Shown piece by piece: positions 2,896 to 19,016 of a DNA stretch of 19,016 nt (positions are counted from its first letter, which is position 1; the number at the start of each line of letters is the position of its first letter). The stretch comes from Candidatus Heimdallarchaeota archaeon (GTDB taxonomy: Archaea; Asgardarchaeota; Heimdallarchaeia; Heimdallarchaeales; Kariarchaeaceae). The notes below the pieces were generated by a model, which ran no database searches, was not told the DNA's origin, and worked only from the letters and a program-made list of their open reading frames with translations. The stretch is taken from NCBI GenBank assembly GCA_015523565.1, contig WAKA01000117.1, forward strand, positions 1 through 19,016. Direction: 5' to 3'. Made by a program: the position numbers and the translations under genes.

Positions 2896-3222
2896 ATCGT
2901 ATCACCTAATTCTTTATGATATGTTGTTTTTTGATACATTCTGAGAATTATAAATATTTAGATGAGGGTATGATCCACCTCTGTTAATTACCTCTTAAAT
3001 AAATGTTGTCTGCCATTTATCCATCATGTCTGATTTGTTTCAATGTTGTATGTTCTCAGTTTAAAATTCCATTTACTTTTATCTATCTCTCCCTCTTTTT
3101 TATTAAATGTCAAAATAAACCTTTGATTGTGAGACAACCTCATTTTCTTCAATTCATTGTGGAAACTCTAATAAACAACCCTTACAATTATCAATTGATT
3201 ACTCCAAGGGAGGGTGTTTAAG

Positions 3223-4812
3223 ATGGATGAAAGTCAAGTAATCGGTGCAGTCTTCTCAAAAACTACTCCTCATGAATTCATGTTTGTCATTGACATTGAA
3301 CAAACTGAAAACCGTCCTGTTGAAGTGGGTGAATATGTTGGATTCTATTTGTTCAATAGACCTGCAATTGGCGTTGTTTCCTCAATTGAACGAGTCAACG
3401 AGGAAATCATTGACAGCTTGGCCAGTTCGCCTGCATCAATCAGACGAATGCGGGAACTTGCAATGGAACCTGGTGCTGAAAAACTTGTAGCAACTGTAAA
3501 AATACACGGATTTGTTGAGGAAAATGGTCGTGTGACAAAACCGCGATTTCCCCCTCTTCCAGGCTCATCTGTCTTCCGTGATCCCAATGACGAATTGCGA
3601 ACTGCCATGGGCACAGGTGAAATTACCATTGGTACATTGTTGGCAAATCCCCAAGTGAATGTAACCCTTAAGATTCAAGCGTTGTTAAGCCGTCATTTTT
3701 CAGTTTTGGCTGTGACTGGTGCAGGAAAAAGTTATACTGTCTCTGTCATCTTGGATCAAATAATGAAAACGTTCCCTAAATCTTCAATTGTGATTATTGA
3801 TCCACATGGGGACTATTTCTTTTTCCGTGACCTGTTCGGCGAACGAGTCCAAATATTTACTCCAGATGGACATAACAATACAACTCGACTAAAATTCAAA
3901 ATAAGCAACTTTTCAACCTCTGAACTGGAAAAATTTGCCAATATCCCCTCTAATGCAACAAATCAATTGAACCGTTTTGAAGAAATTGTCCGTACGTTAC
4001 GGGAAAGTGCCGATGATTGGGATTTTGATGATGTCCGTAGATTATTGCTTGATTATGCAAATAATATCGATAATCCTTCAAAAGAGCGTGATGTGGCTTG
4101 GAGCACGTTTAGGAGGATGAGGACAGGAAGGATTCCTGAAGAGTCATTCCTTGACAAGACTGTGGAAACTGATTTATATAACGAAAATGCTCCTTGCTTA
4201 GTTAAACCAGGTCAAATGACAATAATCGGAACTGGTCTTCTCCCGAAAAGAGGAAAAGAGACCCTTGTCAGGCAAGTTCTTACTCGAATTTTTGAAGGGG
4301 CGGTTGCATGGAGACTAGGATTGGAAAATCGACCTAAAATTGTCAATCCTGTACTTGTTGTTGTTGAAGAAGCTCATCAATTTGCCCCACCCGACGATAC
4401 TGCATGCAAGGAAATCATTTCACAAATTGCGGCAGAAGGTCGAAAATTCGGCGTGGGTCTTGGTATAATAAGTCAACGACCTGGCAAAATTGATGAAAAT
4501 GTTCTTTCTCAGTGTAACACACAAATAACATTGAAAATAACTAATCCAAAAGACCAAAGGGCAATTGAAAATGCAAGTGAAACAATGTCTGCTGATTTCA
4601 TGAAAGACCTGCCAGGATTGAATACAGGTGAGGCAATCATTACGGGATCCGCTATTGGTCTTCCATCAATGGTTCGCATCAACAAGATAGATGCAACTCC
4701 CAGTGGTGATGACATAGACGTTGTTGGGCTTTGGAAGGAACTTCCTTCTTCTGATGAGCTCCAAACAATTGAATCTGTTGAAGCCGACGATGATTTGGGT
4801 GATCTCCTATGA
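3223..4812 (+). CDS. herA: HerA bipolar DNA helicase/translocase (FtsK-HerA ATPase)
   Basis: N-terminal HAS-barrel-like region, Walker A AVTGAGKS, IDPHGDY, Walker B VVVEEAH, EGRKFG arginine finger, SQRP. Start moved from GTG 3214 to ATG 3223 because SD GGGAGG lies at 3208-3213. Overlaps mre11 by ATGA. Confidence 0.93.
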   Translation: MDESQVIGAVFSKTTPHEFMFVIDIEQTENRPVEVGEYVGFYLFNRPAIGVVSSIERVNEEIIDSLASSPASIRRMRELAMEPGAEKLVATVKIHGFVEENGRVTKPRFPPLPGSSVFRDPNDELRTAMGTGEITIGTLLANPQVNVTLKIQALLSRHFSVLAVTGAGKSYTVSVILDQIMKTFPKSSIVIIDPHGDYFFFRDLFGERVQIFTPDGHNNTTRLKFKISNFSTSELEKFANIPSNATNQLNRFEEIVRTLRESADDWDFDDVRRLLLDYANNIDNPSKERDVAWSTFRRMRTGRIPEESFLDKTVETDLYNENAPCLVKPGQMTIIGTGLLPKRGKETLVRQVLTRIFEGAVAWRLGLENRPKIVNPVLVVVEEAHQFAPPDDTACKEIISQIAAEGRKFGVGLGIISQRPGKIDENVLSQCNTQITLKITNPKDQRAIENASETMSADFMKDLPGLNTGEAIITGSAIGLPSMVRINKIDATPSGDDIDVVGLWKELPSSDELQTIESVEADDDLGDLL

Positions 4813-6245
4813 AATTCATTCATACTAGTGATTGGCATCTGGGATATGCACAATACAACCTTGAAGCTAGATTTAATGATTTTTTCAGGGCTGCTGTATA
4901 TACTGTCGATAAAATCATTGAACTGAACCCTGATTTTGTAATCCATACTGGTGATATTTTCCATCATAGCAAACCCACCCCAGGTGCGATTAGACACGCT
5001 GTATTTATCCTCCAAAAGTTAAAGAAAGCGGGTATCCCATTCTACCTTATCCGTGGAAACCACGATGCAAAAACATCTCGTGAGCTTGCTTATGGAGGGA
5101 CATCACTTAAACTATTAAGTGAACTCAAATTAATTGAGTATATTGATGACAAAACAATCTTGCTTGATGAACTGAACGTGGCAATTGCTGGAATTGGTCA
5201 TTACTTTGGCACGTTGGCTGAAAGAAAAGTGAAAGAGGTACTTTCAAATTCAAAAATTCCCAGTAACTATTTTAAAATCCTTGCCCTCCATAATTTTATC
5301 CAAGGACAACTGGACAAGGTTTCTGAAACTGTTTCTATTGGTCTTATAGATTCCCTGAATCTTGACTATGTTGCTGGAGGACATTACCATATCCCTTGGG
5401 TAAGAGATAATGTCAACATTTGGGTTCCTGGGAGTAGTGAAGCAACATCTGCGAATGATTGGCGAAGGGACGATGTCTTATTCAATTCTGTTTCTGTATA
5501 CTCTTCTTTTTACGAAATCGAAGCTGTAAACAAATCTGGTAAATGGGAAAAAACTGTGAGAACACATAAAATCCCCATTCGTCCAAAGATTTTTCTGAAA
5601 GTTGAATCTTATGCAGAAACAGCCTCCGAGGTCAAAAAGGAATTGATTGATGAAATTCAAGAGAAAATGGTCAAGCTACATGACTATTTTCAAACTGAAC
5701 ATGAAGATTTTCTTGTAAAATATAAGAAATACAAGGATATACTTCATAAGCCCGTTGTAAGAATTCATCTTTCAACGGATATGAGACGGGAGGAAATGGA
5801 TCTCTTTCAACCCTCTGATATTCAGACTGATCTTGACTTGCTTAAACTTGAAATAATTATTAATCAAGAGGAAGACGAATTCTATATCCCCACAGAAACT
5901 ATTTCTACCCTTCATATCGACCAAATCATAAAAGAACTTAGCATAGAGATGGGAGGTGAGGAAATATATCCCCTTGTTCAAAAGGTGATCCAAGAATTCG
6001 ATAACCGCCCAGTCTCTAGGGATCTTAATGATGAGGAAATTGATCGTTTTATAGGTTTTGTTGAAACTGGAGTTTCCAATGAAACTCATGAAATAAATGG
6101 AAAAAGCATGGATAAAGCAGAATTGAATAAGAATCTTGAGGAAACGTCTAAAGATAGATCAAACCCAAAAAAAAGAGAAACCAGCACTCAGAATGAGTCT
6201 TCGACAATTACCATAAAAAGTTCATTGGAGGATTGGTTGAAATGA
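4809..6245 (+). CDS. mre11: DNA double-strand break repair nuclease Mre11
   Basis: Metallophosphoesterase motifs SDWHLG, GDIFH, GNHD, ALH, GHYH. Lies between herA and rad50 with ATGA overlaps on both sides. SD GGTGA at 4798-4802. Confidence 0.95.
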   Translation: MKFIHTSDWHLGYAQYNLEARFNDFFRAAVYTVDKIIELNPDFVIHTGDIFHHSKPTPGAIRHAVFILQKLKKAGIPFYLIRGNHDAKTSRELAYGGTSLKLLSELKLIEYIDDKTILLDELNVAIAGIGHYFGTLAERKVKEVLSNSKIPSNYFKILALHNFIQGQLDKVSETVSIGLIDSLNLDYVAGGHYHIPWVRDNVNIWVPGSSEATSANDWRRDDVLFNSVSVYSSFYEIEAVNKSGKWEKTVRTHKIPIRPKIFLKVESYAETASEVKKELIDEIQEKMVKLHDYFQTEHEDFLVKYKKYKDILHKPVVRIHLSTDMRREEMDLFQPSDIQTDLDLLKLEIIINQEEDEFYIPTETISTLHIDQIIKELSIEMGGEEIYPLVQKVIQEFDNRPVSRDLNDEEIDRFIGFVETGVSNETHEINGKSMDKAELNKNLEETSKDRSNPKKRETSTQNESSTITIKSSLEDWLK

Positions 6246-9058
6246 CATTTTTCAAAATTAACAAATTAACTCTTAGTAATATCAGATGCTATAATGATGC
6301 AACATTTCAATTTTCTGACAACAGAAACGTCTTGGTTGGTACTAACGGAGCAGGGAAATCCACTATCATCAACTCTATAGGCATTGGACTCTTTGGTAAG
6401 GACTACTTGAACAAGATGTCATTGAACACAAAAGATTTGATCAAATGGGGTGAAAATAAGGGGAAAATCAATCTGGAATTTTCAACCGAAAAAGGAAAAT
6501 ACCGTTCTGTTTTTGAAATCTCTGAAAAAGGAAAAAATAGCTGGAAACTCTATGACCTAAACACAGGAAAAGCAAAACAGATTACTACCAAGATAACGGA
6601 AACAAAAGAAAAAATAATCGAACTTCTTGATGGATACCTTGATGAAGTGACTTTCAAAAACGCAGTTTGTAGCCCTCAAGGAATGATTACAAATCTTCTT
6701 GACCTTACCCCTAAGGAAAGGCAAAAGCAGATCTACCAAATCTTGGGTGTTGAACAATTCGAAAAAACATTCGAACTGACAAATAAACTGATCAAGAAAC
6801 TTGAAAACAGAAAAAAAACTCTGGTTGAAAAGATTGAGACTCTTGAAAGTGTTATTGTTCCTATTGATAAGTTACAAAAAGAATTGGACGACCTCAATGA
6901 AGAATTTAACAAACTCAGTAAGATGCTTCCAATTAAGCAAAAAGAAGCTGAAACCCTTCGTAAAAAGATACATTCACTTGAAGAAAAAAAGAGCCATTAT
7001 GAAAAACTCCTCACACAACAACGCACTATCGAAAACGATATTGAAACCCTGAACAAAGAAAAAGCATCTTATGAAAAATCATTGGAATCTCTAAAAGCAG
7101 AAACAAAGATTAATGTGTCTACAATAAATGAACTGAACGATATTTCTGGAAAATTAAACAATGAAATCAAGGAAATGCAAAAACAAAAAATAGGATTGAC
7201 CAATGAAAAGCAAAAGTATCAAGAAACTAAAAAACACATTGAGGATGATGAAAAATCCCTAAATCAAAATAACAAACAATTGGAAATGAAAAAGTCTCAA
7301 ATTTCTGAGCTATTGCAAAAAGCTGGAACTGAAAATATCGATGAATTAGAAGAACAAATAAAACAGCTAGATACGAAAATTGCACTTTATAATCAAGAAA
7401 TCAATGAAATCAAAAAATCTATTGAACATCTCAAGACTATAAAAAAACAGCATGAACAGACTATCTCGAAATATAATGAAAAATATGGTCGCTTGGTAAA
7501 GCAATTCGAAGAGGCATTTAAAACAAAGATAGGAATGTTTGATAGCGTAATCAATCAAGTTCAAGAAAATATATCCACATTGGAAAAAGAACTTGACAAA
7601 TCACAAAAACAACGGGATAGCCTTAAAGATGAAATATCTGCTGTAAATACCGAAATCTCTCAAAAAAGAGATGTGATCAAGATTTTAAATCAGTCAAAAA
7701 CCAATGCTCAAAATTGCCCAACCTGCTATCAATCATTGAAAAACGTGGACATCTCATCCCTCATTTCAATGCATGAGACCGATGTGAATAAACTTGTTGC
7801 AAAAAAGACAAAACTTGATCATACATTAATGGAAACGAACCAACTTATCCAAACAAAAAAACAAGAACTTGACATGATGCAAAAGAAAATGAAAAGCCTT
7901 GAAAAAATAAAACAAAACCTGGATGAGTTGAAGAATGAAAAAGACGAACTTGAACATGCCAAAAACGAACTTACAATCATCAATAAGAAAATCAATGAAA
8001 AGAAACAGGAACTTCAGACAAAACAAAAAACAAATATCTCTGATTATGAAAAAGAGAAGACACAACTTCTTAAAATTAAAAACCATTACAGAACAATAGA
8101 AAAGGACATTGTCTCTTTGAAGGCAAGAATTTCCCAACTTGAAAGACAAATTAAGAAAAATAAGGATGCCCTCTCAAAAATAAATTTCCAAAAAATTGTT
8201 CAAGATCTCGACATATTGGAAATGCAATTGAAAAATAAACAGAATTTGTATCGAGTACTTACATCCAAATATTCACAATCTCTTCAAAACTTGGAAAATA
8301 AAAAAATAGCTCTTAAAGAAAAATCCTCAAAATTAAAGGAGATTAAAAAGCAACTCGAAAGTATAGACCCTAAGGAATTCAATTCTGAAATCCTCTCGTC
8401 ACTAAAACGACAACAATCTGATGTTGATAAGGCTGTTGGTGCACTTACTCTAAAACATGATCAACTTAAAAATGAACAGATCCCCAATAAGGAAAAAGAG
8501 CTAAAGGATGCAAAAACTAGAATGTCTGAGGTCAATGAAAGCAAAAACAGAGTCAAAACCATTGAAAATGCAATTGACACTTATTCCCTGATTAGTCAAA
8601 TAATCAAAGAGATTCCAAGAACTGTGTTAATAAACATCACATCTTCTGTTTCTGCCCAAACAACAAGACTTGTTCAAAGATTCATGCCAACACATGGATT
8701 TTCCTCAATTAAACTTAATTCTGATGGATCTCTCCAAATTGTTCGCAATGGTCATGAAATAGATTTGCATTCCCTTTCCGGCGGTGAGAAAACAGTTCTT
8801 GCACTTGCTCTGAGGGTTGCACTAACAACAAAGGTTGTTCCCCTTAACTTTATGATCTTGGATGAACCCACTCAACACCTAGACCGAGCTCGTATCGAGG
8901 AGTTTATCGAGATAATGGATCGTGGAAATATCTTCGGGGGGATCAATAGTCAAGTTATACTTGTGACTCATGTTGATGAGTTCAAAAGGGTTGCAGATCA
9001 AGCGATCGAAATAACTGTTGGCTCTCATAATCAAAGAACTGTGTTGGTTCAAAATTAA
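6242..9058 (+). CDS. rad50: DNA double-strand break repair ATPase Rad50
   Basis: Walker A GTNGAGKS, Q-loop SPQG, long coiled coil with central zinc hook CPTC (7715-7726), signature LSGGE, Walker B/D-loop LDEPT, H-loop VTH. ATG 6242 preferred over TTG 6233 (ATGA overlap with the mre11 stop; SD GGAGG at 6227-6231). Confidence 0.96.
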   Translation: MTFFKINKLTLSNIRCYNDATFQFSDNRNVLVGTNGAGKSTIINSIGIGLFGKDYLNKMSLNTKDLIKWGENKGKINLEFSTEKGKYRSVFEISEKGKNSWKLYDLNTGKAKQITTKITETKEKIIELLDGYLDEVTFKNAVCSPQGMITNLLDLTPKERQKQIYQILGVEQFEKTFELTNKLIKKLENRKKTLVEKIETLESVIVPIDKLQKELDDLNEEFNKLSKMLPIKQKEAETLRKKIHSLEEKKSHYEKLLTQQRTIENDIETLNKEKASYEKSLESLKAETKINVSTINELNDISGKLNNEIKEMQKQKIGLTNEKQKYQETKKHIEDDEKSLNQNNKQLEMKKSQISELLQKAGTENIDELEEQIKQLDTKIALYNQEINEIKKSIEHLKTIKKQHEQTISKYNEKYGRLVKQFEEAFKTKIGMFDSVINQVQENISTLEKELDKSQKQRDSLKDEISAVNTEISQKRDVIKILNQSKTNAQNCPTCYQSLKNVDISSLISMHETDVNKLVAKKTKLDHTLMETNQLIQTKKQELDMMQKKMKSLEKIKQNLDELKNEKDELEHAKNELTIINKKINEKKQELQTKQKTNISDYEKEKTQLLKIKNHYRTIEKDIVSLKARISQLERQIKKNKDALSKINFQKIVQDLDILEMQLKNKQNLYRVLTSKYSQSLQNLENKKIALKEKSSKLKEIKKQLESIDPKEFNSEILSSLKRQQSDVDKAVGALTLKHDQLKNEQIPNKEKELKDAKTRMSEVNESKNRVKTIENAIDTYSLISQIIKEIPRTVLINITSSVSAQTTRLVQRFMPTHGFSSIKLNSDGSLQIVRNGHEIDLHSLSGGEKTVLALALRVALTTKVVPLNFMILDEPTQHLDRARIEEFIEIMDRGNIFGGINSQVILVTHVDEFKRVADQAIEITVGSHNQRTVLVQN

Positions 9059-9330: not shown

Positions 9331-9436
9331 TACCTTGTGTATGTCCTCCGCAATAATGAACTATTGCATATCTTCCTAAATTTTTTTCCCATTTCTACAA
9401 GCTCATGAGCTACCCCAAGAGTTCTTTAGTTGTAGG

Positions 9437-9442
9437 TATAAA
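9437..9442 (+). promoter_or_regulatory. Putative archaeal TATA box for the surface-protein gene
   Basis: TATAAA about 30 nt upstream of ATG 9471. No SD precedes this ATG, which fits a leaderless or short-leader mRNA. Confidence 0.45.
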
Positions 9443-9470
9443 GCACCAAAGACTCATAATTGTAATTAGC

Positions 9471-10670
9471 ATGAAACGCACAACAATCACTCTAACCTTC
9501 GGGGTTTTGTTTCTGATGCTTCTTTCTTCTTTTGCAATTGGGCATGCAGAAAGAGTACAGAATGACTATGGTCTTGACCAAGCAAGTTCTTATGATCATC
9601 GCTTAGTCAAGAAGGATATTTCCTTTGGAATCAGAACAAAAGTAATCAAAGGAGAAAATGACCAAGGTGTTCAATTGGTATTCTCTCAATCTGGCTTAAG
9701 GAGATTCACTAATATCACTAGGGGTTTTGGCAATGTAACCTTCCCAACTAACGATACTGCATACATTGTTGGTGAAGGAAACAACACAGTTACAACAACA
9801 ACCAGATTTGTAAAAACTTTTATCCAAAGGGATGAATATGTCGAGAATGTAACTGTCGGAAAACGAATAAGAAAAACTGGTGGTGATACTATTGGTGGTA
9901 CTCCACAAACAATCCAAGTTGACAAGACTTATCAACTTCCAGCCAGCTACGACGAGTTGGCTTCAAATTCAAACTATACCCAAAGGCAAAGGCGTGGGCT
10001 CACTATCTTTATTTCAAGAACTGGTGAACTCGTTGATGTTCCCGTCAATGATTCCAACGGTCAAGAAATTGGTCGAGTTGTTGCCTTTAAATTCCATATT
10101 CATGTCGCAGCATTCTTTGAAGATACAAAAGAATTTGTTGCAAATTATGAGTCCTTTGAATTTGGTTTCGGAAATATGATCCCACAACAAGTTAAGGATC
10201 ATGTCAAAAACGGAACTTCTGCACAAAAAAGATTGCACAAGGGTGTTGCAGGCGCTGCCAGACTCAATGCAACAAAACCACTTGTTGAATGGATCAATCT
10301 AGGATACAACTCCACGTATGACCTCAATATGAGCATGGGTCTTTTCAATTTCAATAGGAAAGCAAAACTATTGCTTATGGTTCCTATTGGCAGAGAAAGA
10401 AGCAGACCTGGTGAATTGGCATTGCAACAAAGCCTTACAACTGATTTTGAAGGTCTTATCGATCAATATGCACAAGCTAATGAACTGAGTGAACTCGACA
10501 GCATGGAAGTTGACGATCTTGACTTGTCATTGGTGGATGAAGTGGTAAGTGTCGAAAACATCGACTTGGACTCTCTAGCCTCAAATGGAAAAAGCTTACC
10601 ATTCAATTTCCTTGCTTCCCTCCTTGCTTTGTTTGTTGCAATTCCGATCATCCGAAAATTCAGGAACTAA
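9471..10670 (+). CDS. Secreted, C-terminally anchored surface glycoprotein of unknown function
   Basis: Starting at ATG 9471 gives a typical signal peptide (MKR + hydrophobic stretch + GHA). 11 N-x-S/T sequons, no Cys, an acidic linker, then an LPF motif + TM helix + RKFRN tail. The upstream ATG 9405 would bury the signal peptide. Confidence 0.85.
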   Translation: MKRTTITLTFGVLFLMLLSSFAIGHAERVQNDYGLDQASSYDHRLVKKDISFGIRTKVIKGENDQGVQLVFSQSGLRRFTNITRGFGNVTFPTNDTAYIVGEGNNTVTTTTRFVKTFIQRDEYVENVTVGKRIRKTGGDTIGGTPQTIQVDKTYQLPASYDELASNSNYTQRQRRGLTIFISRTGELVDVPVNDSNGQEIGRVVAFKFHIHVAAFFEDTKEFVANYESFEFGFGNMIPQQVKDHVKNGTSAQKRLHKGVAGAARLNATKPLVEWINLGYNSTYDLNMSMGLFNFNRKAKLLLMVPIGRERSRPGELALQQSLTTDFEGLIDQYAQANELSELDSMEVDDLDLSLVDEVVSVENIDLDSLASNGKSLPFNFLASLLALFVAIPIIRKFRN

Positions 10671-15982: not shown

Positions 15983-16774
15983 ATGTCCGTAGAAGAGAAA
16001 AAAATAGATGTCTACTCTGGTGCTGTCTTGGATCGCAAAAAGAAAATTCGTATCCAAAGAGGGTCTCCAGAAACAGGTATTGAAATGGTTGAATATGACG
16101 TAGAGTATGACCACACTGAAGTTGTTCTAGACATCGTCCACCGTGTTCAAGCAGAATTTGCTCCTGATTTGGCAGTCCGCTGGAATTGCAAGGCTGGAAA
16201 GTGTGGTTCTTGCTCAGCCGAAATCAATGGCATGCCAAAACTAATGTGCATGACCAAGATGATCGATTATGATGACGTAGATGTTCTTGAAATACGTCCC
16301 ATGAGAACTTTTCCAGTTATCAAAGACCTTGTAACTGATGTAAGCTGGAATTTCGAAGTGAATAAACGAATTAAACCATTTAAGCCCCCTGAAGGACTTA
16401 AAGAACTAACCATGCAACAGAAACATGTTGATAGGGTACAAGAATATAGGAAATGCATCGAATGCTTCCTATGCCAAAATACCTGTCATGTACTTAGAAC
16501 ACATCAAAAGACCAATGAATTTGCTGGTCCACGCTTCATGATTAGATTGGCATCATTGGAAATGCATCCAATGGATACCGAAGAAAACCGTCTGAAAGAA
16601 ATCAAGGACGACTTTGGTGTCATGATGTGCAATATCACTCGATGTTGTACTGAAGTATGCCCTGAAGAAATCAACATAACTGACAATGGTATTATCCCAT
16701 TAAAGGAAAGAGTAATTGGCGAGTTCTATGACCCATTGGCAAAAGCAATCTCATGGGTCAAAAAATTACTTTAA
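15983..16774 (+). CDS. sdhB: Succinate dehydrogenase/fumarate reductase iron-sulfur subunit
   Basis: Cluster motifs CKAGKCGSC...C, CIECFLCQNTC and CNITRCCTEVCP. SD GGAGG at 15971-15975. Confidence 0.96.
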   Translation: MSVEEKKIDVYSGAVLDRKKKIRIQRGSPETGIEMVEYDVEYDHTEVVLDIVHRVQAEFAPDLAVRWNCKAGKCGSCSAEINGMPKLMCMTKMIDYDDVDVLEIRPMRTFPVIKDLVTDVSWNFEVNKRIKPFKPPEGLKELTMQQKHVDRVQEYRKCIECFLCQNTCHVLRTHQKTNEFAGPRFMIRLASLEMHPMDTEENRLKEIKDDFGVMMCNITRCCTEVCPEEINITDNGIIPLKERVIGEFYDPLAKAISWVKKLL

Positions 16775-18621
16775 TTTGACAATCTTCGGTTCAAAAATTC
16801 TGTAAATAATTTCATTGATCTAATTCTTCCCTTTATATCACTCATTGCTCCATGTCCCTCATCTGTATATTCTACAAACTCAAAATCTCCATCTGGACCT
16901 TCTTTTCTTCCAAGTTTCAATAATCTGTCTCTGACATTTCGTGATTCTGTAACTGGACATCGTGGATCATTTGTTCCATGTACCAAAAGCAATGGCGCCT
17001 TTATGTTCTCCACATAATTCAAGGGTGACCTTTCTTCCCACAGCTCTGCATCTTCCACTGGATCACCCATTTGCATTCTCAAGAAATACTTGAAATGTGG
17101 CATTGACTTTTCATACATGTTCTTCAGATGTGATACTGGAACCCAAGCACATCCTGCTGCCCACAAATCTGGTGATTTGGTTAAACAAACTAAAGTTGCA
17201 TATCCTCCATAACTTCCACCAAATACTGCAACTCGGTTTGGATCCACACTATAGTTGTCTATGATATATTGCCTTCCTGCAACCCAATCATCATGATCTT
17301 TGCCACCCCAATCTTTCAAACATGCATCCCTGAATTCCACTCCATATCCTGTACTCCCTCTTACATTTGGTAGTAACACTACATACCCCAAATCTGCCAA
17401 ATATTGTGCCATCATGCTGAAGTTAAGGAAGTACTGTCCTGTAGGTCCCCCATGCGGAAGAACAATTGCAGGATACTTAAATGTTGGATCAAAATCCCTC
17501 GGTTTATAGAGAATCGCAGGAATCATTGTTCCATCTAAACTAGGATACCAGATGTGCTCCCCATTCACAAATAATGAGGGATCAATTCCTTTCGTATCTG
17601 TATTCAATAATGTTTCATAATTTTCTGTTTCCAAATCATACATTATCAATTTTGAAGGCATCGTAGGGGTGTTAATTGTCAAAAACAAGTACCTGTCATC
17701 CTTCAATTGGGAACCTGCCGCTATTCCCTTTGGAAAGTTCAATTGCCTTGATTTTCCTGTTTCAATGTCAAAGATGACTGGTGAAATCGACCCATCGACA
17801 TTTTGCATTGCCACCAAAAATTTACCATTGTCACTGAATTTAGCGGCATATTGCTCATGTTTGCCATCACCAAGAATTCTAATTTCTTTTGTTTCAACAT
17901 TGTAAATCCCTGGCTGGGCAACCCCACTTGCATCTGTTGTAAAGGCAATGAATTTACCATCCTTTGACCAATCTGCAAATGAATCATTGCTTCCAATTTT
18001 CATCTGGATTATTCGCTTGGTTTCTGTCCCATCTACTTTTGCAATATAAATGTCTGAATTTCTGAGATCTTTCTCCTCGTTCGTCCCATAAACTACATAT
18101 TCTCCATCTGGTGAAAATTTTCCGCCAAATGCAGGATTTTCATGTGCCGTGATCTGTTCAACAGTTTCTCCGTCGGTTGAAATCCTGAAAACATTCATTT
18201 GCCCATTCCTGTTGCTCGTGATGGAATACCATTTGCCATCTGGGGATGAATCAACAATGTATTCCTGAAATTCTGGAGTATCTGTCAACATTGTAACTTC
18301 GCTTGTCTCAATATCTATACTGTGGATATTGTGCTGTTCATCTCCGTCTTTATCCTTGGCGAACAAGATGCTTTTATCATCCCTAGCCCAAATAAATCCT
18401 GCCCTTAGGGTCTTTGGAACCTCTCCATGCGAAATCTGTTTAATTTCTTTTGTCGCTAGATCCATAATATATAACTCAATCCTTCCTGTTTTATCCCAAT
18501 AAAATGCTAGCTTGTCTTTTGCATGATTAAGAGTGGGCATATAGAAACTTGGCATCGATGCCAATGTCTCTAGATCAAAATTGCCTTTTTCCTTAATTGG
18601 AGCCAACTTCTGTGCTTCCAT
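16771..18621 (-). CDS. S9-family serine peptidase (acylaminoacyl/dipeptidyl aminopeptidase-like)
   Basis: N-terminal beta-propeller repeats (SPDG, SKDG), HGGP, NVRGSTGYG, nucleophile GGSYGG, Asp in NDPRC, His in DEGHG. Confidence 0.93.
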   Translation of the reverse strand: MEAQKLAPIKEKGNFDLETLASMPSFYMPTLNHAKDKLAFYWDKTGRIELYIMDLATKEIKQISHGEVPKTLRAGFIWARDDKSILFAKDKDGDEQHNIHSIDIETSEVTMLTDTPEFQEYIVDSSPDGKWYSITSNRNGQMNVFRISTDGETVEQITAHENPAFGGKFSPDGEYVVYGTNEEKDLRNSDIYIAKVDGTETKRIIQMKIGSNDSFADWSKDGKFIAFTTDASGVAQPGIYNVETKEIRILGDGKHEQYAAKFSDNGKFLVAMQNVDGSISPVIFDIETGKSRQLNFPKGIAAGSQLKDDRYLFLTINTPTMPSKLIMYDLETENYETLLNTDTKGIDPSLFVNGEHIWYPSLDGTMIPAILYKPRDFDPTFKYPAIVLPHGGPTGQYFLNFSMMAQYLADLGYVVLLPNVRGSTGYGVEFRDACLKDWGGKDHDDWVAGRQYIIDNYSVDPNRVAVFGGSYGGYATLVCLTKSPDLWAAGCAWVPVSHLKNMYEKSMPHFKYFLRMQMGDPVEDAELWEERSPLNYVENIKAPLLLVHGTNDPRCPVTESRNVRDRLLKLGRKEGPDGDFEFVEYTDEGHGAMSDIKGRIRSMKLFTEFLNRRLSN

Positions 18622-18691
18622 GTTTTTTAATCTACAATGCTAAAATAAATATTCGCCTATAGATTAAATCAATTTGAACATTCAAAATTGG

Positions 18692-18699
18692 TTTAATTA
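18692..18699 (+). promoter_or_regulatory. Putative TATA box for the metG leader transcript
   Basis: TTTAATTA preceded by a BRE-like CAAAATTGG, 25-32 nt upstream of ATG 18724. Confidence 0.4.
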
Positions 18700-18723
18700 T
18701 GCCTTAAATTGATCTGGCAAAAA

Positions 18724-18798
18724 ATGAAAATGTTTTTATGGATGAAATGGGATGCTAAGTTGGTGAAACCCATGGGGTATCGCGAAATGGCTTACTAA
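18724..18798 (+). CDS. Putative Met-rich leader peptide (uORF) of metG, MKMFLWMKWDAKLVKPMGYREMAY
   Basis: Hand translation gives 24 codons, 5 of them ATG (18724, 18730, 18742, 18772, 18787), with stop TAA at 18796-18798. Directly upstream of methionyl-tRNA synthetase. Translation is not demonstrated. Confidence 0.55.
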   Translation: MKMFLWMKWDAKLVKPMGYREMAY

Positions 18799-18899
18799 CA
18801 TTTATCTTTTCGACAGCCTGACCTATGGGTTTTCATTTGTTTTAAATTGTCAACCATTTCCAATTAGGGAACCAAAGGTTGAAATTTTTCAAATTTTTT
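18762..18899 (+). promoter_or_regulatory. Structured metG leader: two hairpins, each followed by a U-rich tract
   Basis: Stem 1: 18762-18776 pairs with 18822-18837 (15 bp, 3 G-U, 1 bulge), then TGTTTT. Stem 2: TCAACC 18850-18855 / GGTTGA 18877-18882 with inner TTCC/GGAA, then TTTTTCAAATTTTTT. Confidence 0.55.
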
Positions 18900-18908
18900 A
18901 TGAGGTGA

Positions 18909-19016
18909 ATGCTATTGACTGAAGAAAAATATATTGTAACAAGCGCCCTTCCATACATAAATGGAGTCAAGCACATTGGAAATTTAGTTGGTTCATTGTT
19001 GCCTGCAGACATATAT
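18909..19016 (+). CDS. metG: Methionyl-tRNA synthetase, N-terminal part (runs off the window)
   Basis: [36 protein letters not shown] contains TSALPY-N and the class I HIGH-type motif (HIGN) typical of MetRS. SD GAGGTGA at 18902-18908. The true start may be TTG 18915, which has better SD spacing. Confidence 0.93.

Follow-up and report, generated by a model that had tools for sequence, protein, structure and literature searches.

A candidate hungry-codon +1 frameshift sensor of Met-tRNA in the metG leader of an Asgard archaeon

The leader of metG, the gene for methionyl-tRNA synthetase (MetRS), in this Heimdallarchaeota archaeon very likely contains a sensor of Met-tRNA that operates by +1 frameshifting at a hungry codon. 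A short upstream open reading frame (uORF) carries a conserved cassette and stops early in the 0 frame, the +1 frame is free of stops as far as the metG start, and in front of other genes the Met codon of the cassette is exchanged for the codon of the cognate amino acid. We lean towards a fuller reading in which this sensor has a translational output, namely coupled translation of metG. Across the Asgard archaea, one portable cassette consisting of an internal Shine–Dalgarno (SD) sequence, a slippery P codon and a cognate A codon likely provides synthetase and biosynthesis genes with a general means of sensing amino acids, in a coupled form (metG, leuS and proS), a fused form (hisG) and apparently a tandem form (hisG). 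An earlier note on this DNA had proposed that the metG leader is regulatory and is read by a ribosome on the uORF, with the caveat that the output could be translational. Both points are supported.

The metG Locus

The window, meaning the whole stretch of 19,016 nucleotides that was analysed, ends within metG. The leader lies at the end of contig C117, and the gene resumes on contig C123 with an 84-nt overlap. The 5' end of the gene (18915..19016, + strand) was placed by the contig overlap, the SD spacing and comparison with relatives. The start is most likely TTG at 18915, 6 nt past the SD, rather than ATG at 18909; it is preferred because of the SD spacing and the relatives. The metG SD, GAGGTGA (18902..18908, +), is strong and is not clearly hidden, with an unpaired probability of ~0.4 in folding. 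The window DNA is present in hydrothermal vent metagenomes from one study, and there were no RNA datasets among the listed holders of this DNA. One public contig, which may be its source, is identical to it over 18200-19016.

A candidate archaeal promoter is read from the sequence at 18722..18740 (+), composed of a purine-rich BRE and then a TATA-like box (18733-18740). A TATA-like box is found ~40-55 nt 5' of the cassette in most of the homologous metG leaders, so its position is conserved. Transcription is expected to start near 18758-18762, and if it starts at ~18760, the transcript would lack 18722-30 and 18744-50 along with the first three Met codons. There is a 24-codon uORF whose Met-rich 5' part overlaps the probable BRE and TATA-like box, and this part is missing from relatives. 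Conservation is limited to a single Met codon and does not extend to the additional ones at 18724-42.

Divergent to metG is an S9 prolyl oligopeptidase gene (window 16771-18621, − strand), an arrangement also seen in relatives from the genus. Elsewhere in the window, at 3214-9058 (+), there are consecutive genes for HerA, a Mre11-like phosphoesterase and a Rad50-like ATPase, and a 421-aa ORF without a Pfam match (9405-10670) is a possible NurA. Other synthetases in the window genome (G000) include two valyl-tRNA synthetase-like genes (C56:48663 and C68:1881) of different types as judged by their N-terminal motifs; genome G008 has four matches to that family. For ArgRS, there is no PF00750 match at E 1e-20 in G000, G003, G008, G015 or G016, one of these five genomes being a single contig, and the missing match probably reflects a divergent type of enzyme and not a true absence.

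The Candidate Frameshift Cassette

The uORF of interest begins at ATG 18772, 5 nt after an SD, GGTGA (18762..18766, +), with both SD and ATG being the same in genus relatives. In the 0 frame it reads MGYREMAY* (18772..18798, +), ending at TAA 18796-98, and there are alternative in-frame starts at TTG 18760 and GTG 18763. It contains the cassette GGG TAT CGC GAA ATG at 18775-89. The codons GGG TAT form an internal SD-like stimulator (18774..18780, +) that ends 3 nt before the presumed P-site codon. The shift site (18784..18789, +), assigned from codon conservation, would consist of GAA (18784-86) in the P site and the Met codon ATG (18787-89) in the A site, with re-pairing to AAA in the +1 frame. 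The tRNA-Glu(UUC) that would do this is encoded in the genome.

Throughout the order, metG leaders have the same succession within a short uORF: an in-frame SD-like codon, another SD-like codon, any codon, NAA and ATG. The leuS leaders share the ATG GGG TAT layout. The metG cassette is present in 41 of the 46 metG leaders of the order (five lack it), some of them from a family with a MetRS of just ~40% identity. Eleven metG leaders outside the order have it also, namely all eight examined in family f5, both in f6 and one in f20. Family f7 and ~35 further Asgard leaders that were inspected gave no metG cassette. The genomes are related, and the counts overstate the number of independent cases.

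Codon −3 in the 52 metG cassettes is AGG, GGG, GGT or TGG only, Arg is always AGG and Glu is always GAA. Because the −3 codon is so limited, the conservation of the cassette is best read as being at the nucleotide level and SD-like. The SD-like codons occupy −3 and −2 with a fixed 3-nt spacer in all 52 metG and 26 leuS cassettes. We infer that they pair with 16S rRNA, the 3' tail of which was not found in the assembly. The P codon of the metG cassettes is GAA in 33, CAA in 16, TTT in 2 and AAA in 1. Re-pairing in the +1 frame would hold at two of three positions in nearly all cassettes and at all three in a few (AAA-A and TTT-C); CUU-U does not occur. No metG cassette has an A directly after the ATG, where it would create a UGA in the +1 frame.

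Some metG leaders depart from this pattern. That of G006 (L016) has a degenerate cassette with ATA replacing ATG and a closed +1 frame, and resembles a lost switch. In L034, L082 and L089 of genus g11, the promoter and cassette are apparently deleted, and the gene directly follows the upstream gene. The family f11 leaders (L199 and L201-L207) lack the Met cassette and have another conserved motif, AAGGCGGGA followed by AAGCTTCA or AAACTCA, with AAGGCGGGA located ~30 nt 3' of a TATA-like box.

Openness of the +1 Frame

The +1 frame of the window forms an ORF of 45 codons (18785..18922, +) ending at TGA 18920-22, which overlaps the metG start. The overlap of stop and start is 8 nt, and the metG SD at 18902-08 is inside the +1 frame. 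The motif for metG and leuS was defined without reference to frame openness. A +1 frame extending to within 50 nt of the start is found for 50 of 52 cassettes, where shuffles predict 7.8; among the control frames of the 52 leaders, the 0 frame gets this far in none and the −1 frame in 9. When only one leader per genus is taken, the +1 frame does so in 15 of 15 against 3.75 expected. The numbers of stops in the 0, +1 and +2 frames are 250, 10 and 194 for metG and 147, 0 and 59 for leuS. On these counts the openness of the +1 frame is the strongest signal in the leaders, and the earlier note had missed it. The +1 stops of metG fall between −15 and +17 in 43 of 52 leaders, and exactly at +1 or +5 in 23. 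Six of the frames end 23-46 nt short of the start, a distance at which reinitiation would be inefficient, and another two terminate well before it (−92 and −166).

An open frame that leads up to a gene might be an ordinary small gene that begins at a leaderless or otherwise nonstandard start and is coupled to metG constitutively, in which case the cassette would be incidental. We regard this as most improbable. An ATG, GTG or TTG does occur upstream of the site in the +1 frame in 28 of 52 metG leaders, often within SD sequences, and such a codon is close to the predicted transcription start site in genus g11. But in the window, TGA 18764 closes this frame on the upstream side, and no ATG, GTG or TTG follows until GTG 18905, with one CTG at 18818. 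The predicted +1 peptides are unrelated between genera and range from 29 to 77 codons. Their dN/dS of 0.5-0.7 compares with 0.67-1.0 in control frames; in favor of a small gene, g11 metG has a value of 0.51 with a slight third-position bias. Because lengths and sequences vary and dN/dS is near that of the control frames, it is the openness and not the peptide that is selected, with a weak constraint possible in g11. A small gene also leaves the swap of the cognate codon, described next, unexplained.

Exchange of the Cognate Codon

The leuS leaders of the order have the cassette with a Leu codon in place of ATG in 26 of 29 cases, preceded by GTT or TTT, and all of their +1 frames are open. In 25 of the 26 the +1 frame runs past the start, and in two leaders it is in frame with LeuRS and apparently fused to it. 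The Leu cassette is found in 14 further genomes from other orders and classes, with six cases outside the class picked by eye. The leuS leader of the window genome (L059:~830-980; G000:C99:18835) is laid out like metG, with a Leu cassette and a 45-codon +1 frame ending at +5. A Pro codon fills the slot in four proS leaders and a Thr codon in one thrS leader; these were selected with a filter that demanded an open +1 frame and not the cognate codon. The proS of the window genome is without a cassette.

A His cassette precedes hisG in six genomes, including the window genome. Here the +1 frame is that of HisG itself, and it is closed 3-5 codons upstream. The loci are L259 (G000:C84, minus strand), L254, L262, L260, L265 and L267. 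In four of the six genomes, the His cassettes are in tandem, with the +1 frame of the upstream one ending at the start of the next uORF. The HisG frame has an ATG or GTG overlapping the cassette in four of the six, although this codon is just 2-3 nt from an SD.

The P codon follows the first base of the A codon, being NAA-A for Met and Thr and NTT-C for Leu, Pro and His; we relate this to the need for two bases to re-pair after the +1 shift. The exchange bears on other readings of the site that were rejected. Initiation at ATG 18787 cannot be the signal when the slot has no AUG in leuS, proS, thrS and hisG. A −2 shift would leave the P-site tRNA unable to re-pair, and a mimic of the tRNA anticodon (a CAU loop at 18770-72) is not conserved in relatives.

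No cassette was found for ileS, valS, serS, asp/asnS, tyrS, trpS, hisS, glyS, gluS or alaS in five genomes, using automatic start calls of which some are doubtful. Four pheS leaders (L178, L179, L180 and L181) share a uORF whose first codons are start-Pro-Trp-Asn; their +1 frames stay open to +8, +1, +1 and +1, respectively. As Phe follows in just two of them, a variant cassette is possible there. Genome-wide pattern scans were noisy, with 54 matches against 80 in a control frame in one and 20 against 15 in another, and therefore give no member list; the stricter scan overlooked hisG.

RNA Structure in the Leader

The earlier note had interpreted the leader as an RNA-fold switch built from mutually exclusive pairings, in which a ribosome on the Met codons chooses between a terminator or sequestering fold and a read-through fold. 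The strings it quoted were all found where it had placed them, but the switch was not supported. The folding z score of the whole leader is −0.23, with 77 of 200 shuffles folding equally well, and apart from the first stem the pairings fail tests of conservation or probability.

The first stem (18762..18837, +; arms 18762-76 and 18822-37) is the part that stands. It is a duplex of 15 bp with one bulge, and its z score against shuffles is −3.6; the segment 18755-18845 folds into it at −20.5 kcal/mol. It is present throughout the genus (four of four genomes, z −2.2 to −3.6), where it is kept with base changes, and in several other genera. In L007 one change affects both sides of the duplex, and in L009 the pairing is redrawn; both were read by eye and are not part of a formal count, the 3' arms having been left unaligned by MAFFT. 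Stem 1 is absent at metG in g11, the largest genus, and it is not the minimum-energy fold of the full leader, its probability being ~0.38 when folded from the putative start site and 0 when folded from 18722. It would hide the uORF SD, the start and part of the internal SD and is probably an accessory element.

The remaining pairings fare less well. The 9-bp alternative partner of the 3' arm at 18722-30 exists, but it is A/U-rich with one G-C pair, it has P = 0.09, and it lies 5' of the TATA-like box at 18733, so it is probably untranscribed. Stem 2 (18850..18882, +), which had been offered as a hairpin followed by U-tracts before the metG SD, is a predicted local hairpin that does form (P ~0.97), but it is not conserved and its role is doubtful: the z score of the region is −0.8, and z falls below −2 there in just 2 of 52 metG leaders. 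A search of the leader with a terminator-like pattern of the bacterial type gave no match. The two copies of GAAATGG and the complement CCATTTC, proposed to break stem 2, are present as well, but the pairing has P ~0, the complement is found in just one leader of 52, that of the window, and the first copy is likely upstream of the transcription start. The conserved GAAATG is instead to be read as the P-site and A-site codon pair of the putative frameshift cassette, and not as a pairing partner.

When folding was constrained by a ribosome footprint, as the earlier note had suggested, blocking the uORF left both stem 2 and access to the metG SD unchanged. A classical stall-type attenuator is very unlikely. 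It could draw on stem 1, which is significant and kept in several genera, and on stem 2 with U tracts 5' of the SD, but it works with a single conserved Met codon and leaves the stop-free +1 frame unaccounted for.

The search of Rfam advised by the same note returned no significant family and no T-box or SAM match up to E 10. This also weighs on a T-box-like RNA, in which an uncharged tRNA would pair with a specifier codon. A single cognate codon in a fixed slot, with GAA-AUG resembling a specifier loop, gives that idea some appeal, but we find it scarcely credible. There is no conserved fold or antiterminator, leuS has GTT and not GAA before the codon, and the combination of an in-frame start, an early stop and an open +1 frame is the mark of a ribosome.

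How the Sensor Would Work

In the frameshift sensor that we favor, ribosomes would initiate at ATG 18772 and arrive with GAA in the P site and AUG in the A site. The internal SD would pair with 16S rRNA 3 nt upstream of the P site as in prfB, where the spacing of the internal SD is likewise 3 nt. With elongator Met-tRNA plentiful, the AUG would be read fast, the ribosome would stop at TAA 18796, and metG expression would be low. With Met-tRNA scarce, the A site would stand empty, and the peptidyl-tRNA-Glu could slip from GAA to AAA. The shifted ribosome would then read the 45-codon +1 frame past the early stop and end at the TGA overlapping the metG start, where it would reinitiate or clear the region, so that MetRS would rise in a negative feedback. 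By hiding the uORF start, stem 1 may restrict ribosome loading. The slippage, its Met dependence, the reinitiation and the low metG level when Met is plentiful are all what we infer from the arrangement of the leaders.

Archaeal reinitiation requires overlaps or very short distances (PMC10666635). We favor translational coupling because the stops cluster on the start and because the fused cases show delivery of the ribosome to the gene. As the main alternative, the same +1 sensor might instead have a transcriptional or RNA-stability output, with the shifted ribosome covering the U-rich leader and blocking termination by FttA/aCPSF1 or at poly(U). This is rather unlikely, but it has several points behind it. 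A gene for an FttA-type KH domain protein is in the genome, runs of at least five U are present in 41 of 52 metG leaders, and a review speculates that coupled ribosomes exclude aCPSF1 (PMC8116511). The +1 frames that fall 23-46 nt short of the start would fit it, as would the strong SD that metG has for itself, and stem 1 would restrict loading to the first ribosome. On the other hand, U runs are common in leaders that are ~35% U, and the leuS frames passing the start together with the fused hisG and two leuS frames point to delivery of ribosomes. Both outputs can coexist.

Relationship to Known Systems

The closest relative in logic is prfB, the gene of bacterial release factor 2, which likewise has a short 0-frame ORF, an internal SD 5' of a slippery P codon and a slow A codon as the sensor, with the +1 shift restoring the scarce factor (PMC5009743). 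The A slot here holds ATG or another cognate sense codon and not the UGA read by RF2, so that aminoacyl-tRNA would be sensed. The metG +1 frame differs further in ending at the gene start (TGA 18920) and encoding no functional protein, whereas at hisG in the six genomes, and apparently at two leuS genes, the +1 frame encodes the protein as in prfB. The cassette would thus work like prfB, but there is no UGA in its A slot and, at metG, no coding +1 frame. It differs also in being archaeal, in being reused for several amino acids, and in having usually a first-position mismatch on re-pairing, weaker than the CUU-U of prfB.

In ketolide-induced ermCL and in E. coli pheL, ribosomes that shift frame within the leader ORF enter the spacer, with an effect on the gene downstream (PMC5009743). 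Unlike the metG leader, ermCL is responsive to a drug, the pheL shift has been judged incidental, and neither is a conserved cognate-codon cassette. The trpL, hisL and pheM attenuators and the T-box riboswitches sense charging of the cognate tRNA and control synthetase or biosynthesis genes. They differ from the metG leader, which has no codon run, no conserved terminator/antiterminator pair and no T-box fold, and would use one codon and a change of frame. Termination–reinitiation in archaea is similar in the overlap of stop and start and in the SD located inside the upstream frame (PMC6728339, PMC10666635), but the upstream ORF there is a constitutive gene, while here it would be entered only by frameshifting. 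Recoding on archaeal ribosomes is known or predicted for fucA1, magnesium chelatase and haloarchaeal viruses; those shifts are mostly −1 and within genes, and none is reported as a leader amino-acid sensor (PMC8211752, PMC5009743).

A 2016 review of frameshifting knew of no productive starvation-specific shift at a hungry codon (PMC5009743). In the incomplete library available to us, no report was found of such a frameshift sensor for synthetase leaders or in Asgard archaea. The metG leader may represent an undescribed variant of regulatory +1 frameshifting.

Implications

T-boxes and attenuators are, to our knowledge, essentially bacterial, and the proposed sensor bears on how archaea could adjust their synthetases to the state of tRNA charging. 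If it is real, the cassette would be what attenuators and T-boxes are in bacteria, and it would put hungry-codon frameshifting to productive use. It is shorter than 170 nt, follows a clear mutational logic and is testable in existing archaeal reporters. Some hisG and metG starts are likely mis-called by gene finders. The host group comprises the closest relatives of the eukaryotes, and such a sensor would bear on the origins of uORF-based amino-acid control.
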